A stretch of 27,989 nucleotides of DNA from a phage. The stretch is taken from NCBI GenBank assembly GCA_025276375.1, contig GCA_025276375.1_3645.2; one strand, 5' to 3'. Below, piece by piece: positions 617 through 26,962 of the stretch. How positions within the stretch are numbered: the first letter of the stretch is position 1; each line of letters starts with the position of its first letter. Under the pieces are notes generated by a model. It was given only the letters and a program-made list of their open reading frames with translations, was not told the DNA's origin and did not search any database. The translations under genes were made by a program, and so were the position numbers.

Positions 617-3600
617 TTACTTCAGTTTCTCTTGCAATCCAGTAACAACCTCTGTCAATTTTTTAACCTGCTCCTCAAGGGCGGTTATTTTATCGTCCTG
701 TTCCCTGCAAACCTGGACAAGCAAGCCTGTTACAGCTGCGTAGTCAACGTTATAGAACCTTTCCTCGGTCATCAGAGGAATACCGTCTTGAGTAGGACCT
801 TCTATTTCCTTCCTTTTCACGAAAGATCCTACTGCCTCTGGCAATGCTTCCATAACCTCTTGAGCAATCACGCCTGCATAAGGCATACCATTCTCTTTCA
901 AGGTGTAGGTATAGCCTTTCATCTTTCTAATTGCTTCCAGAGCGTTAGGTATGACCTCTATATTATCCTTCAGGTCTCTATCGGAACTTTGGCTAACAGT
1001 GGTACATACTACCGTGCCGTTGACAGCAAAATATCTTGATTTAGCCTCATCTGCCTTAGCTCCGCAGTGGAATACCCAGCTGCCGGCTGTTGAGTTATCA
1101 CTTATCTGAAACTCAAGCACATTCTTCCTATCAGCGCCATTACCCCAATAGTACAACCTGCCTGTATTAGAAGGCATGTTCGAAGTGTTGGTAACATCAG
1201 CACCACCACCTGTATGTATTGTGAACTCAGGTTCAAGATTGGACCCTTGAGTTTTTAAAGTGATACCCTTACCGCCAAGCTGCTGCCAATGGCCCCATGT
1301 GAAAACACCACCTATCGTTGTTCCATAACGCAGGAATTTTTCTCCAAGATATGTTGTATATTCCTGTACGCAACTCTCTGGAACGTTGGCATAGTTTCTA
1401 TAGACAAGGAGAGTACCTGCCTGAGAGCATGGGTAGTTTCTATCAAGTGCGGCTTGAGCATTGGCCTCCTGATGATAAAAACCCTCTCTATCTCCTTTGT
1501 AGTCGTTAAGGTCATTAGTTCCCAACCCTTGACCACGGTGCTGAATAACTTTGTTCCACGCTCTGTGGTTTCCCTGCTCTATGGAACGAGTGTACAACTG
1601 GTCTAAACGACCTGCCATCTGGAAAGCGTAGTTTCCAGAAAATGCCACAGACAACCCGCCAACAACCATTGAACCTTCAGGTCCGTTGACGTTGCCAGCC
1701 AGTATTTTGGATGGGTTGTTAGGCCCAAACTGGTTGTTCCAGTCTGCACCAGTGTGGCATACAAAACCACCAGGGGCTGAAAAAGTACCATCCTTATTGA
1801 AGTTGTAGAATCTATGAGCTGTGCCTACAATATCACGAACAATAACTTGACCAGCCTCTGGGGTGGATCTGAACTCTGCCTGTCCTTGCAGTCTTGCCCC
1901 ATTGCCGCATTTAGAGGTAAAGGTATTGTTGATCAGATCCTCTGTTCCTTCCGATGCAGCCTGGAACCCTGCGTTAGAGAACAATGCTTTTCGAGTGGTT
2001 TGGCTACCCGGACAAATGTAGTTAAGACCGTTGTACCACATCTCTACAGGAGGCATCTCTGTCTTACTCATCAGAACCATTCTATCAGGCGTGCCTATAT
2101 AGTGCCAGCCTGCACCACCACCCGTATAGAACCCTGATGTTCCCTTGAACTCAGCAAGAGGCCTGGTGTTTGTTACATCATCACCTTTAATTGCAAGACT
2201 TAAATTATCTGACGCAAGAGGGGCGCAAAACTTGACACCATCTTGGTTGTTAGTTACATTTCCTACCTGCCAGTCATTTTCTCTGGTAAATACCTCAAGA
2301 ACGTTTCTGCTTGCGTAGACACTGACAGGGAAAGCACGCGCCTCAACATAGAATGCAACATACTCCTGCTTCCCTCTAGTTGGAGCTATACACCCAAGAA
2401 TTGCTTTCTCGTTTTGGTAGAAATTAATAACCCCTTGGAAAGAATCCCCTCTGTCTGTCCAACCACCAGTTCTATAGTGACACTGTAAGGTCGCACAGTT
2501 CATAGGGTCACCACCAGATGACGACCTAGTAACTATGGTAATATCGGTGCCAATAGTTGGAGCACAATACGGATCTGTTCTAACGATGATTGGGTAGTAT
2601 TTCCCATCTTCCATCCCTGCAGTTCTTGGCAGTGTTAAGAAATCTTTGACACCAGCAGCTATAGGAACTTTGAACAGATTCTGAGCATCTGCCAGGGTTG
2701 TAGCCCCTGTACCACCTGCGGCTTGCGGTAAAGGTTCCCACTTGGCCTTCCGGTTGTTATAAACACCCCATTCCAAAGTGCCGTTACCGGATTCGTCCAT
2801 TCCACCATCCCAGACAACCATCTTGGCGGCTTTCTTGGATCCCCAGAAGCCTCTTTCTGCTCCTGAACTACGAATCCATTCTCCAAGTCCCCAGTTTGTC
2901 AACTGACCAGTAAGATCCCCAACCTGCATATATTTAGGGCAGTCTAATACGCCGTCTTCGCGGAAACCTAAATATCTATGGGTTTCAGATCCTTTTGCAC
3001 CTTTATGGAGGTGGATTGTCAACCAAGCCTTATTGTCGTTTCTTACCTCAGAATAGATCCTATACCCATGCTCAAGAACACCATCAGTATTATATTTATC
3101 TCCATGGAGAATACCTGAGGCCGACTTAACATCTCCAGAGTATTGAGCTAAGTAAAGGTGCCCGAAGGCTGGCGAGTTGTTTTTACCAAGGCCGATATGA
3201 GATCTGAAGGTATCATCGTTACGAGGTCTGACCATCGGCTGCCATGCAGTCCACTGATTTGTGTTGGCCTGATAGGTTCTCAAATACCAAACATCTACGT
3301 TAGAGAATGGATAGTATTCCTGACGACAACCTGTACCGCCGTTAGCGTTGTTCTGCCAAACAATCAAGTGACCAGCACCAGAACCTGCAGGGTAACCATT
3401 TGCCTCAGTTGCATAAGCAGTCATTGGCTGGTAGTATACACCATCCTGATTACCAGTCAAGTTATTGATATTGAAATTTGGCTCAAGGGCTGCACGTTGC
3501 TTATAGAAAGCACCGATATTGATACGGATTCCAGCGGCATCTCTAGCCCCTGTGCCGCCCTGCTCTATAGCAAGAGGCTGCCAAGAAGCTGTTTGTTGGT

Positions 3601-18932: not shown

Positions 18933-19772
18933 TTATGCCAGTGCAGCCTCAAAATCTTTCATCATATTTTGGAAAGTTTTTGCCTTACTTAAGGTAACAC
19001 CGTGCTCTTTGGCGAAGGTTTGGAGTGCATCTTTTGAACCACTTTTGTCATCTTCGTTGTTAAGAGCTGCGGCCTGCTGTAGTAGGGCATCAACATCACT
19101 GCGAGAAGATCTTGATTCTTGTGCCTGTTCAGGATCCTGCTCAGTGCCTCCCTCCGGTACAGTCGGACCTTGGGATTCTTCACCACCACCAGGTTCAGTA
19201 GGACCTACAGGCGGCTCTGGTTGAGGCGGTGGAGCTATCGTAGAGACCAGCCCAAGATTTACAACCTGAGAACGTTTCTTAGGCCACTCAATGGTGAAAG
19301 TTTGGGTATCTTCTTCATAAACAACGTTGCATTGCTCATCGTTTATGGTCACCTTTTTAGGCATCCCTACAGGGTCCCATAGATGGCCCTCTGCCACGGA
19401 AACTTGGAAAGCCGCATCTACCTCTTTAAACACTGACGGGGTGAGTGTGATATTGACATCCCCACTTTGCAGTGTTAAAGTGCTTTCATCAAGGTTCTCT
19501 GTGAAGAACAGAAGAATAACACCCATACGGATAGTTGAAATACCAGTATCAATTGGCAGGCCTGTGTGTTTTGCAATCTTCTGGAAGAAGTCTACAATCG
19601 TTCTGCATGGATAGTGCACACTGCCAATAACGAATTCTGTTGGCGGCAGCAGGGCTGATAAACCAACATTGATTTCTGGGTTATATTGTGCTAAAAATTG
19701 ATAAAAACTTAACTGATTGTTGAAAACTCTTAATAGAGGATCATACTCGACTGGGTAGACGGTTCGCTTCAC
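18933..19772 (-). CDS. capsid-associated hypothetical protein (279 aa), GTG start
   Basis: GTG at 19772 with AGGAG 7 nt upstream. Pro/Glu-rich central linker. Follows the MCP terminator. Confidence 0.35.
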   Translation of the reverse strand: MKRTVYPVEYDPLLRVFNNQLSFYQFLAQYNPEINVGLSALLPPTEFVIGSVHYPCRTIVDFFQKIAKHTGLPIDTGISTIRMGVILLFFTENLDESTLTLQSGDVNITLTPSVFKEVDAAFQVSVAEGHLWDPVGMPKKVTINDEQCNVVYEEDTQTFTIEWPKKRSQVVNLGLVSTIAPPPQPEPPVGPTEPGGGEESQGPTVPEGGTEQDPEQAQESRSSRSDVDALLQQAAALNNEDDKSGSKDALQTFAKEHGVTLSKAKTFQNMMKDFEAALA

Positions 19773-20913: not shown

Positions 20914-21288
20914 TTATTCCTGAACTTTGTTGCCTTTGGCTTCAAGCGCTGCCAGAACTGCTTCAGCTGCCGCTGTGCCGCCAGCAACTTTCAAATGAGC
21001 TTTAGCGAAGGTTACACCGCGAACAGCAACAACCAGCTTGTACCTCTCGCCAACTTTCAGCGGTTCTGCAAGATTTACACGACCAGCAGAGTCGGGCAGA
21101 AGCGCACGGTCAACCAGCACACCAAAGGTGTCTGAACCATCTTGATTAGCCAGAGTACCGGTTTTGGTAACTACTGCGCCAGCAACGTGATCAGCAGTGA
21201 GAGTGATTTCAATTTCTTTAAAGTTGAAACCTGCATCGCTAGAATCAACTTTGCCGAGCACGATATCAGAATATTGAGTGGTGATCAT
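20914..21288 (-). CDS. putative head decoration / capsid accessory protein (124 aa)
   Basis: Small Gly/Ala/Val-rich protein between the scaffold and MCP genes. Context only. Confidence 0.35.
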   Translation of the reverse strand: MITTQYSDIVLGKVDSSDAGFNFKEIEITLTADHVAGAVVTKTGTLANQDGSDTFGVLVDRALLPDSAGRVNLAEPLKVGERYKLVVAVRGVTFAKAHLKVAGGTAAAEAVLAALEAKGNKVQE

Positions 21289-24435: not shown

Positions 24436-25240
24436 TTAGATAAAACGCTTGAACATAGAAGGTGATGAGATTGATGGAATCACACAAGGAAGTGCTACCT
24501 CCTCTTTCTCCAGGAAATTAATCGCAGAAGCTACACAGTCGGCCCAGTCGTCTTTTCTGTTAAATGTTGATCTTTCCCCGTTGAATTTTTCAAGTTCAGT
24601 CAGAAATGCTTCCAGAGTATCAGGATGGAAACTGGATTTTACAATCCTCACCATTCCTTGTTGGGCAAGATTGGCAAAAGGTGAGAACCTTGTCAGTTTA
24701 GATTTGTTGGAAGGCATTGGGTCTTCTTCAACCCTAAACCCTTCGGCAAGCAAGGATCTGGAGGAGGTTAAGAACTCACTCTTACCTGCCTGACCGGGGT
24801 CCACAGAGAATACGATTATACAATCATCACCATCAAACTGCGCCTGTTTCCTGATGATCACATCTCGTTCACCAGCCTTTTTACAGAACTTGCCTTCTAG
24901 ACCTGTGGAATACCTCCCGTCATCCACGTTCTCAGGACAATAATCACCGGACAGGTAATAAAAGCCGTCGCTATCTTTACTTACCTTAACACTGGCGGTA
25001 AAGTCAGGAAATTTATTACCGGAAGTTCTCTCGGTTCCTGCCTTATCCCATGCCCTGCAAGATACTGACCCAAGAGGTACTCTATCGGCATCACGAAGGA
25101 AAGATCTTTGAAAATAGTTTGCACCCTCAGGCTTTGCAAACCAGTTACCATGAAGAAGCTGAGCTTTTTCCAGTTCCGGCAGACCTTCAAGGAAAGCAAG
25201 GTATTCTGGGTTGTCTCTTAAGCAAACAGGATTATCGAAT
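24436..25240 (-). CDS. terL: terminase large subunit, exon 2 (nuclease domain); 5' boundary is the inferred 3' splice site
   Basis: The frame is open upstream of the track ORF start (24927) as far as the TAA at 25245-25243. Hand translation gives ...DNPVCLRDNPEYLAFLEGLPELEKAQLLHGNWFAKPEGANYFQRSFLRDADRVPLGSVSCRAWDKAGTE..., with terminase nuclease acidic motifs (RAWDKA, DDWADC). Confidence 0.75.
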
Positions 25241-26219
25241 CCTTATATTCAAAGGTGGTCGCAACACCACCTTCCGCACCTTTACGTGCTGCTGCATGTT
25301 ACCATGCAGAGTAGACTATATCACCACCCATTTCAGGGTGCTTCGCTTTTCGAGCGCCATAAGCTTGCGCCCTACTCCCTCTCGGGATAGTCGTTGAACT
25401 ACATTACCAATCGTAATTGTTTGAAATATAGGTGTAAGTCTTACGGTCTTTTATTCCTTTAACAACACTAAAACTTACTCCCCACTTCTTAGCTATTTTA
25501 TTTACACACAAGACCTTATCACTAAGATCCTCGCAGATACCTATTATCTTGTGCTCACTTATCCGATTAGAGGTTGGCACTTTTCTAAAGTTAAACTCTT
25601 TAGAAATATCTGGGTATACTGAGCCATTCTTTATACCACTTACAAGTGATTGATTGACACCAAACATTTCACAAATGTCTTTTACCCTTGCGCCTTGCTC
25701 TAACAGCCTACATATTTCAAGAGCAGTGGCATCATCCAGGGACCTGTATTTATTGACATAGTCCTTTTTAAGTCCCATTTCATGAGCGTGATGTGTGTTT
25801 TCCTCAGGCGTTGTCCACTCAAGGTTCCATGCGGCGTTATTCAACTTATTACCATCTAGGTGGTTTACTTGAGTTTTCACGCTGGGATTGTCATTATCAA
25901 CAAAAGTCATAGCAATCACTCTGTGAACGAGCACTTGGAACTTTTTACCGTCCTCGCACAAAGTTACCATAGCATAGCCAGTCTTTTTCTGCACATTAGG
26001 ATGGAGGAATTTATTAGAATACAGACTGTAAATTCTGCCATCGTATGTAGCACAATAATGATTGTAGCCTAAAAAGCCTAAATTTTTCATTTCAAACATC
26101 TCCCTACTACAGGTTCGGAAGGGTAATTATAGCTGCTGATTGTCCGTTTAGCAATCGGATTTCCCAGCAATTAACGAAGTTATTCGACGTGCATTTCTGC
26201 ACGAAGCCACTATCATTTA
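25241..26219 (-). mobile_element. group I self-splicing intron (about 979 nt) inside terL, carrying an HNH homing endonuclease ORF
   Basis: Minus-strand RNA contains the conserved core elements P AAUUGCUGGGAA (about 26172-26161), Q AAUCAGCAGC (about 26141-26132), R GUUCAACGACUA (25399-25388) and S GAUAUAGUCUAC (25322-25311), with P/Q (GCUG/CAGC) and R/S (GACUA/UAGUC) complementary. GNRA-capped hairpins CGUGCA-GAAA-UGCACG (5' part) and CUGCAUG-GUAA-CAUGCAG (25310-25293). Exon 1 ends in U (26220) and the intron ends in G (25241), which restores the terL frame. Confidence 0.75.
25404..26090 (-). CDS. HNH homing endonuclease (intron-encoded), about 228 aa
   Basis: HNH motif (VHRVIAMTFVDNDNP...QVNHLDGNKLNNAAWNLEWTTPEENTHH) plus two C-terminal helix-turn-helix-like repeats (ICEMFGVNQSLVSGIKNG; IAKKWGVSFSVVKGIKDRK). 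Likely start is the ATG at 26090, 9 nt after AGGGAG. Located between intron elements Q and R. Confidence 0.8.
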   Translation of the reverse strand: MKNLGFLGYNHYCATYDGRIYSLYSNKFLHPNVQKKTGYAMVTLCEDGKKFQVLVHRVIAMTFVDNDNPSVKTQVNHLDGNKLNNAAWNLEWTTPEENTHHAHEMGLKKDYVNKYRSLDDATALEICRLLEQGARVKDICEMFGVNQSLVSGIKNGSVYPDISKEFNFRKVPTSNRISEHKIIGICEDLSDKVLCVNKIAKKWGVSFSVVKGIKDRKTYTYISNNYDW

Positions 26220-26962
26220 ATGGTTGCGCCTATGAACGAGAATGACAACGGTCTTGGCTTGATCTCTACGCCAAGTCCGTTAACCGTGGTGTATTTCTCT
26301 ATCAACTCTTCTTTAGAATCTCCCCAGATAAATTCCCCGTCGCGTCGGATAAAATATCTTTTCTTACCGCATTTCTCCGGATCTGGATACCCTTCATCGT
26401 CCAACCACCATCTAACCAGTTTGGCAAGCATGTGTTCTGAATCGGGGTTACAGCTGATAACCATTCTTGATGGATACTTTGACTGAGATCGCAGACGAGA
26501 CATCAGGTAGTCTATCTGCTCCCATTCGAACTGCGTGCCCTCATCGAAGCAAACCATGGTGTACTCAAGCCCCTGATGGTTAAGCTTATCTTGTACATAC
26601 TCCATATGGCAGTATTTTACAACAGCTCCCTTTTTGCTTCTATCCCACTTACCAGTGTTCGGATCAAACCGTGGAAAAATGAACTTATGATCCTTCTCTC
26701 TGAACTTTGGCTTAATGTTTTCAGGCAGATCACTATAAATAGCTACTGCTTTAGGCCATAGTCCACCCTCACCTTCTAACTGTGGGGTTGTTCTTCGGAA
26801 CATAACCACAGAGCTGTGGGGGTCATCAATAATTTTAAGTGGCATCAACTGCAAGAGGAACGACTTGCCAGACCCTGCGGCACCGCCGATTACCAAGATA
26901 TCTGCATCGTTTTCGAGGATCATCTTCTGCTTTTCAGAACACGGTCCGTAAATCTTAGACAT
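26220..26962 (-). CDS. terL: terminase large subunit, exon 1 (ATPase domain); 3' boundary is the inferred 5' splice site
   Basis: Walker A VIGGAAGSGKS and Walker B YTMVCFDEGTQ. The unspliced frame stops at 26215-26213 after ...SFIGATIK. Start ATG 26962-26960 overlaps the Rz1 stop. Confidence 0.8.

Follow-up and report, generated by a model that had tools for sequence, protein, structure and literature searches.

A predicted mobile group IA intron with an HNH reading frame in the terminase large-subunit gene of an rV5-like coliphage

A terminase gene in two pieces

The window, by which we mean the entire 27,989-nucleotide stretch of phage DNA that we analyzed, comes from the structural and packaging gene region of a Vequintavirus (an rV5-like coliphage). 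The whole of it is collinear with positions 33583-61899 of rV5. Its genes for tail, head and portal proteins, terL and the spanin genes all lie on the minus strand; no tRNAs were found in the window. Over the 2.8 kb surrounding the insert described here, identity to Vequintavirus phages is 98-99% (98.7% for ECML-10 and 98.6% for rV5). The terminase large-subunit gene, terL, contains both of the T4-like Terminase_6 domains, one in each of two separate pieces. Exon 1 (26220..26962, minus strand) encodes amino acids 1-247 and the first two nucleotides of codon 248 and matches the N-terminal ATPase domain Terminase_6N (6.8e-17); its limits are set by the open reading frame, the domain match and the intron-less Murica allele. 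Exon 2 (24436..25240, minus strand) opens with the third base of codon 248 and encodes the nuclease domain up to the stop codon (24438..24436), and its frame, 25239..24439, matches the RNaseH-like nuclease domain Terminase_6C (4.8e-7). Between them lie 979 nucleotides, from U26219 to a terminal G at 25241 (25241..26219, minus strand). The original prediction, made from the sequence without database searches, had placed the two halves at exactly these positions about 1 kb apart, and the domain matches bear it out.

The reading frame of exon 1 does not run through the insert. It closes shortly after the boundary (26962..26213, minus strand), giving a 249-amino-acid product with the C-terminal end ...SFIGATIK, which is the ATPase fragment foreseen for an unspliced message. 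At the 5′ end of exon 2 we found no start codon and no ribosome-binding site; the first in-frame start on the minus strand is at 24927 (GVG...), 104 codons into the exon.

We located the insertion point by comparison with six alleles (Murica, JohannBauhin, YN3, BP9, PMBT16 and A6-1) in which terL lacks the intron and reads without interruption for 515 amino acids. The BLAST alignment of the window with Murica breaks at 26223 and picks up again at 25240. Across the site Murica reads GGCGCAACAATATTCGAT, and window exon 1 up to 26220 joined to exon 2 from 25240 reads GGCGCAACCATATTCGAT; a longer reading of Murica across the same point is GGCGCAACAATATTCGATAAT. With a slash marking each boundary, the 5′ boundary in the window is GGCGCAACCAT/TAAATG... 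and the 3′ boundary is ...ATAAGG/ATTCGATAAT, and all six intron-less alleles share ...GCAACAAT/ATTCGATAAT... at the insertion point. A single solution fits, with U26220 as the last base of exon 1 and A25240 as the first base of exon 2, so that the junction ACCAU/AUUCG is exact to the base. The final base of the insert, G25241 on the minus strand, is placed as the terminal (omega) G by the same alleles and is kept in 10/10 intron-bearing alleles. By inspection, pairing of the 3′ exon start with the guide sequence (P10) was weak, at about 3 bp, and uninformative.

Removal of 26219..25241 in silico restored a reading frame continuous with the uninterrupted homologues and yielded a TerL of 515 amino acids, 513 of which are identical to Murica TerL (513/515). 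The junction of the spliced cDNA is thus predicted to read ...GGCGCAACCAU/AUUCGAUAAU..., and the corresponding target stretch of the uninterrupted Murica gene is ...ACAATATTCG.... The original prediction had called for an alignment with intron-less homologues, and this comparison fixed the insertion site in codon 248. It also showed that the proposed junctions, a 3′ splice site after a G and an in-frame terminase of about 515 residues among them, had been offered as approximate but are correct to the nucleotide.

Architecture of the ribozyme core

A covariance-model search had been suggested as a check on the intron assignment. No match was obtained with Rfam at gathering thresholds over the whole window. 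A permissive scan of 25150..26300 returned two partial matches to the group I family RF00028, one to its 3′ half at 25530..25292 on the minus strand (35.3 bits, E 4.5e-7; covering R, the P3 3′ strand, P8, S and P9) and one to its 5′ half at 26229..25868 on the minus strand (21.5 bits, E 6.2e-3; covering P1-P5), both below the RF00028 gathering score of 50 bits, which is an operational threshold and not a property that defines the family. We attribute the shortfall to the 713-nt ORF-bearing loop of P6, which the model cannot bridge, and not to the absence of a ribozyme. Alleles at the same site that lack the ORF are 266-268 nt long and scored far above the threshold: 92.7 bits for VB-EcoM-WM, 95.6 for RudolfGeigy, 92.7 for JEP1 and 87.5 for A147, with E values from 2e-21 to 8e-24, far beyond what chance would produce. 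The cores of these alleles are 94-97% identical to that of the window, with few substitutions outside P6. For the window as such the suggested search gave two sub-threshold halves, and for the ORF-less alleles it gave matches above the threshold. By BLAST, the core also resembled the td and nrdB introns of T4, RB3 nrdB, AR9, introns of Twort-like phages and many others. The segment around S and P7 is 91.7% identical to T4 td over 36 nt, and over P3-P5 the identity to the nrdB introns of T4 and RB3 is 81-83%.

For folding we swapped the 713-nt P6 loop for GAAA and computed the minimum-free-energy structure. The ORF-deleted fold recovered P1, P2, P3, P4, P5, P6, P7.1, P7.2, P8, P9, P9.1 and P9.2, and the conserved elements P, Q, R and S occur in order, together with a P3/P7 pseudoknot. 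All four strings named in the original prediction were found, at 26172..26161, 26141..26132, 25399..25388 and 25322..25311, and the GNRA-capped hairpins that it mentioned are P2 (GAAA), P7.1 (GAGA) and P9 (GUAA). All coordinates in the next two paragraphs are on the minus strand.

P1 (26207..26223) forms between exon CCAU plus intron UA (26223..26218) and UAGUGG (26212..26207), with 6/6 pairs in 8/8 alleles. Within this helix exon CCAU (26223..26220) faces intron GUGG (26210..26207), the pairing foreseen by the original prediction along with cleavage after a U, and the U26220·G26210 wobble at the 5′ splice site is present in 8/8 alleles. Downstream is the P2 hairpin GUGCA-GAAA-UGCAC (26189..26202), seen in the fold and in the eight-allele alignment; in TH18 its closing G-C is replaced by A-U, a compensatory change, and its loop GAAA by GUAA. 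The 5′ strand of P3, CUUCGUU (26173..26179), pairs with 25347..25341 at 7/7 positions in all alleles. Element P, AAUUGCUGGGAA (26161..26172), comprises J3/4 and the 5′ strand of P4, and element Q, AAUCAGCAGC (26132..26141), is the 3′ strand of P4; both are supported by RF00028, the fold and the alignment. The hairpin between them, P5 (UCCG...CGGA, 26143..26159), appears in the fold and the alignment, with a U-A pair changed to C-G in TH18 and a G-C pair changed to U-A in WM, JEP1 and TH18. P6 is drawn from the fold: its 5′ strand CUAUAAUUACC (26122..26132) and 3′ strand GGUAAUGUAG (25399..25408) form 10 bp with one bulged A, and the 713 nt lie between the two arms.

Element R, GUUCAACGACUA (25388..25399), was identified by RF00028 and the fold. 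It contains the 5′ strand of P7, GACUA (25392..25388), which pairs as a pseudoknot with UAGUC (25318..25314), the 3′ strand, in element S, GAUAUAGUCUAC (25311..25322; RF00028, fold and alignment); 5/5 pairs are present in all alleles. Fold and alignment together place the helices that lie between R and S. P7.1 is the hairpin UCCC-GAGA-GGGA (25376..25387), in which rV5 and JEP1 have U·G in place of a C-G pair and TH18 has the loop GCAA. P7.2 is the hairpin GGGCGC...GCGCUC (25352..25372), where 97.9% of cells are paired and the single mismatch, U/U, is in TH18. Next come the 3′ strand of P3, AGCGAAG (25341..25347), and the P8 hairpin ACCC...GGGU (25326..25339), with an invariant stem and a variable loop. 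P3 (7 bp), P4 (6 bp), P7 (5 bp) and P8 (4 bp) are 100% paired in eight alleles. Beyond S follow the P9 hairpin CUGCAUG-GUAA-CAUGCAG (25292..25309; RF00028, fold and alignment), P9.1 (GCAC...GUGC, 25276..25289; fold and alignment) and P9.2 (GAAGGUGGU-GUUGCG-ACCACCUUU, 25251..25274; fold and alignment), the last with compensatory double changes in two pairs.

In an alignment of eight alleles, standard pairs occupied 99.4% of the cells of the 67 pairs, compared with 34-46% when the partners were slid by 1-3 columns; these values come from few, closely related alleles and from a structure derived from one of them. Changes on both sides were present in four pairs (P2, P5 and two in P9.2), a number matched by 0/500 shuffles, and one more replacement in P5, of G-C by U-A in WM, JEP1 and TH18, is masked by alignment gaps. 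The most divergent comparison is with TH18, which carries a diverged copy of the whole element at the same site (78.5% identical). The window and TH18 agree at about 87-90% of positions in the ribozyme parts, while within the embedded ORF the synonymous sites approach saturation (pS 0.84), indicating that the RNA core itself is constrained.

The exact excision, the scores of the ORF-less alleles, the P1-P9.2 helix set with its compensatory changes and the ORF matches described below support the assignment of the insert as a group I intron whose P6 loop carries an HNH ORF of the I-HmuI type. The extra helices P7.1/P7.2 and P9.1/P9.2 point to an IA architecture, T4-td-like (IA2), and the IA helix set is also like that of the T4 nrdB and nrdD introns. 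An intein or a group II intron is excluded, since the terL frame is closed by stop codons within the insert and a group I core is present.

The HNH reading frame in P6

The P6 loop, between Q and R, holds an ORF of 231 amino acids from AUG 26099 (25404..26099, minus strand), with its UAA stop within the 3′ strand of P6. The original prediction had thus correctly assigned it the placement of the td intron ORF. A second start, AUG 26090, is better spaced than AUG 26099 from the ribosome-binding site GGGAG at 26104..26100 and would give a 228-amino-acid protein, which is the annotated version in HdK5 and TH18. The protein matches HNH_3 (PF13392) at 28.0 bits, above the Pfam cut-off of 24.8, and also contains HTH_23; it is homologous to I-HmuI (PDB 1U3E, E 2.4e-11) and to phrog_59 (1.2e-51). 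I-HmuI, an HNH homing endonuclease that nicks DNA, is encoded in the DNA polymerase intron of Bacillus phage SPO1, so that both proteins are phage-intron-encoded, and the homology covers residues 8-155 with the conserved HNH core ...H.DGNK.NN...NL.W.T...N. I-HmuI is 174 amino acids long, compared with 228 for the window protein, which has extra C-terminal modules of HTH type. Relative to TH18 the ORF has pN 0.11 and pS 0.84 (pN/pS 0.13), indicative of purifying selection. A metal-binding Asp of I-HmuI (VDHKDG) is Asn in the window protein (VNHLDG), and this replacement just before the catalytic His makes endonuclease activity less than certain.

Comparison with T4 td brings out both likeness and difference. 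The td intron, which encodes I-TevI (IA2), shares the IA core, P7.1/P7.2, P9.1/P9.2, the placement of an endonuclease ORF in the loop of P6 and residence in an essential phage gene. The interrupted genes differ (thymidylate synthase in T4, terL here), as do the endonucleases (GIY-YIG in T4, HNH of the I-HmuI kind here). T4 introns have a hairpin at the ribosome-binding site, and for the window intron we found no support for one: a CCCU/AGGG hairpin that would sequester GGGAG 26104..26100 was predicted, but it was no more stable than shuffled sequences (z 0.24 for the window and 1.10 for TH18), and we rejected it. A candidate sigma-70-like promoter, TTGCTA-17-TATAAT at 26154..26126, scored 10/12; promoter-like matches in the region numbered 6, against 6.0 expected from shuffles. 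TTGCTA lies in the P5 loop, and the perfect TATAAT is supplied by the P6 5′ strand of the ORF-bearing form.

The ORF-bearing and ORF-less forms do not differ by a simple deletion of the ORF. The P6 arm has been exchanged as a whole, and the limits of homology between the two forms coincide with the last base of Q (26132) and the first base of R (25399). At exon position -3, C against A shows a perfect association (10/10 against 6/6). One possible reading, less likely than not, is that the HNH gene moved into or out of the ribozyme as a cassette with its own P6 stem and possibly a promoter, and that this movement was perhaps coupled to exon changes conferring "immunity". If true, the locus would have caught in the act the independent invasion of a pre-existing intron by an endonuclease gene.

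Splicing, homing and distribution among vequintaviruses

This intron is already known from rV5. The rV5 paper (Kropinski et al. 2013, Virol J 10:76) has a section entitled "Introns in terminase", thanks David Shub for intron location, and describes rV5 terL in three segments with a homing endonuclease in one of the intervening segments. In the RefSeq record of rV5 (NC_011041), terL (gp065, "ORF64ABC") is joined from three pieces and encloses the HNH gene rv5_gp066, and the BASEL phages RudolfGeigy and JohannBauhin also have terL annotated as a join. The rV5 intron at this site is 979 nt long, 99.7% identical to that of the window and carries the same HNH ORF. A second, ORF-less group I intron of about 320 nt is present in the Walker B codons of rV5 but not in the window, where its empty site lies between 26537 and 26536. 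Among Vequintavirus records, 125 matched the terL region in the 95-99% identity band. Near-identical ORF-bearing introns (at least 97%) are present in 15, ORF-bearing introns at 78.5% identity in 4 and ORF-less introns in 9; the others are empty at the site.

Other phages have group I introns in terL as well, with an HNH ORF or lacking one. Those of Lactobacillus phage LL-H and Pectobacterium phage CB7 are at different insertion sites. The HNH-bearing terL intron of the related Certrevirus CB7 is spliced in vivo by RT-PCR; we considered whether it occupies the same site and rejected this, because the first annotated CB7 terL CDS is only 384 nt and the site is nearer the N terminus. We likewise rejected the introns of Acinetobacter phage YMC13/03/R2096, which lie upstream of Walker B and not in codon 248. 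For the terL intron described here we found no splicing experiment or RNA data in the literature from any Vequintavirus.

We consider it very probable that a mobile IA group I intron occupies codon 248 of terL, between the ATPase and nuclease domains, that it splices to give a 515-amino-acid terminase and that its HNH protein presumably acts in homing. By this reading the late terL transcript would fold into the ribozyme, and an external guanosine bound at P7 would attack after U26220, the U of the U·G pair in P1. The freed 3′-OH of exon 1 would then attack after the terminal G25241, joining ...ACCAU to AUUCG... in an mRNA that would encode the full terminase of 515 residues. RNA left unspliced would meet a stop two codons into the intron and yield only the 249-residue ATPase fragment. 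The HNH enzyme, of 228 or 231 residues, would presumably nick or cut intron-less terL during co-infection, and recombinational repair would copy the intron in. Homing of this kind would account for why, among phages more than 95% identical, some have the intron and others lack it; this polymorphism and the purifying selection on the ORF lend it indirect support. Since the first in-frame start of exon 2 comes only at 24927, it is a sound inference that the phage should need splicing to make a whole terminase and so to package its DNA.

Splicing in vivo might not be autonomous and might require a host RNA chaperone, the transit of ribosomes or an intron-encoded maturase. T4 td splicing in vivo is aided by translation and by StpA, and the 713-nt P6 ORF must not disturb folding, a point that is not specific to this intron. 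Self-splicing in vitro is, however, the general rule for phage IA introns of this kind, the core of the ORF-less alleles is complete and canonical, and HNH enzymes are not known to serve as maturases. We therefore regard dependence on such help as improbable.

It is less probable still that splicing has been lost and that the terminase is made as two polypeptides that assemble after translation, as for nrdA of Aeromonas phage Aeh1, which is split by mobE. Many GenBank records do give two separate "terminase-like" CDSs, and the CB7 paper, which points to the case of Aeh1, reports one HNH insertion that fails to splice. Against this possibility, the 5′ end of exon 2 provides neither a start nor a ribosome-binding site ahead of the internal start at 24927, the ribozyme core is intact and far better conserved than the synonymous sites of its ORF, the helices are maintained by compensatory changes, and excision exactly restores the intron-less sequence. 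The least probable alternative, that the HNH protein is a working packaging component like the HNH partners of HK97-type terminases and not a selfish homing enzyme, draws on its location inside terL and on the assistance that some terminases receive from HNH proteins (Kala et al. 2014, as cited in the CB7 paper), but the near-identical HNH-bearing intron is present in only 15 of the matched Vequintavirus records and diverged ones in 4, so the protein is dispensable, and its I-HmuI-like sequence with HTH modules is of the intron-homing type.

The intron that we favor, spliced and mobile, would be a textbook case of a selfish element lodged in an essential phage gene, and it leaves the understanding of such elements unchanged. 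The value of the present analysis lies in annotation: many Vequintavirus records, including that of ECML-10, the closest relative of the window, have terL unannotated or broken up into two or three genes labeled "terminase-like" or "hypothetical", and the base-exact junction permits the correct terL join. Moreover, the series of alleles at two sites, from empty to ORF-less intron to intron with endonuclease, is a natural system for homing and for the turnover of introns and their ORFs.

Structure of the P6 arm and the flanking exon of the codon-248 intron

The window carries a group I intron at codon 248 of terL (26219-25241, minus strand) whose HNH ORF lies in the P6 loop, and four phages (WM, RudolfGeigy, A147 and JEP1) have an ORF-less form at the same site. 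Homology between the window and these ORF-less alleles stops precisely where Q ends (26132) and where R starts (25399), the boundaries of P6. Furthermore, the whole P6 arm of the ORF-less alleles (GCCAAGCCUGAAUAUUCAGGAAGG) is unrelated to that of the window (CUAUAAUUACC...GGUAAUGUAG). The ORF-less alleles do not look like plain deletions of the ORF.

We also found a perfect association, among the alleles examined, between the intron and exon position -3, the third base of the Thr246 codon (26222, minus strand). All 10 alleles with the intron have C here, forming a P1 pair with G26208, and all 6 without the intron have A. The association is consistent with co-conversion during homing, with selection for P1 stability, or with a role for this base in target recognition by the endonuclease.

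Matches to the terL region and intron included approximately 16-18 records (MG0656xx) that bear the name "Campylobacter phage" and the status UNVERIFIED, with C. jejuni given as host. They share 97-99% identity with E. coli Vequintaviruses over terL and the intron. Their host labels look doubtful.

Candidate promoter and catalytic motif of the HNH ORF

Directly upstream of the HNH ORF lies a sigma-70-like sequence, TTGCTA-17 nt-TATAAT (10/12; 26126-26154, minus strand), the -10 hexamer of which falls within the 5' strand of P6. The endonuclease gene could have its own promoter here, inside the intron; the number of sigma-70-like matches in the region was not above that in shuffled sequences. 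Within the ORF, the HNH motif VNHLDG (25857-25874) has an asparagine before the catalytic histidine, at the position where I-HmuI, the HNH endonuclease of phage SPO1, has a metal-binding aspartate (VDHKDG).

A second intron site in terL

The Walker B segment of terL (...CFDEG|TQ...; 26534-26539, minus strand) contains a second intron site that is empty in the window. In the related Vequintaviruses rV5, HdK5, RudolfGeigy and JohannBauhin it is occupied by a group I intron of ~320 nt (84-85 bits with the Rfam model RF00028), the HdK5 copy being larger, with an additional "recombination endonuclease" ORF. The sequence across the site is GGT|ACA CAA in occupied alleles and GGC ACG CAG in empty ones, the window among them. 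The two versions differ at three synonymous positions around the insertion point, and the empty alleles lack the U required at the 5' splice site.

Acinetobacter phage YMC13/03/R2096 has two tandem group I introns (NC_027332 21016-21983; RF00028 67.5 and 96.6 bits) upstream of its annotated terL fragment, ahead of the Walker B motif; this record apparently leaves the 5' portion of the gene without annotation.

Divergence from rV5

Three patches of the window (1044-1610, 19076-19184 and 20916-21104) did not align to rV5, in surroundings that are collinear and 88-99% identical. The latter two are close to the boundaries between gp58 and gp59 and between the major capsid and decoration genes. The first falls within the homologue of the tail fibre gene gp41 and likely reflects host-range variation.
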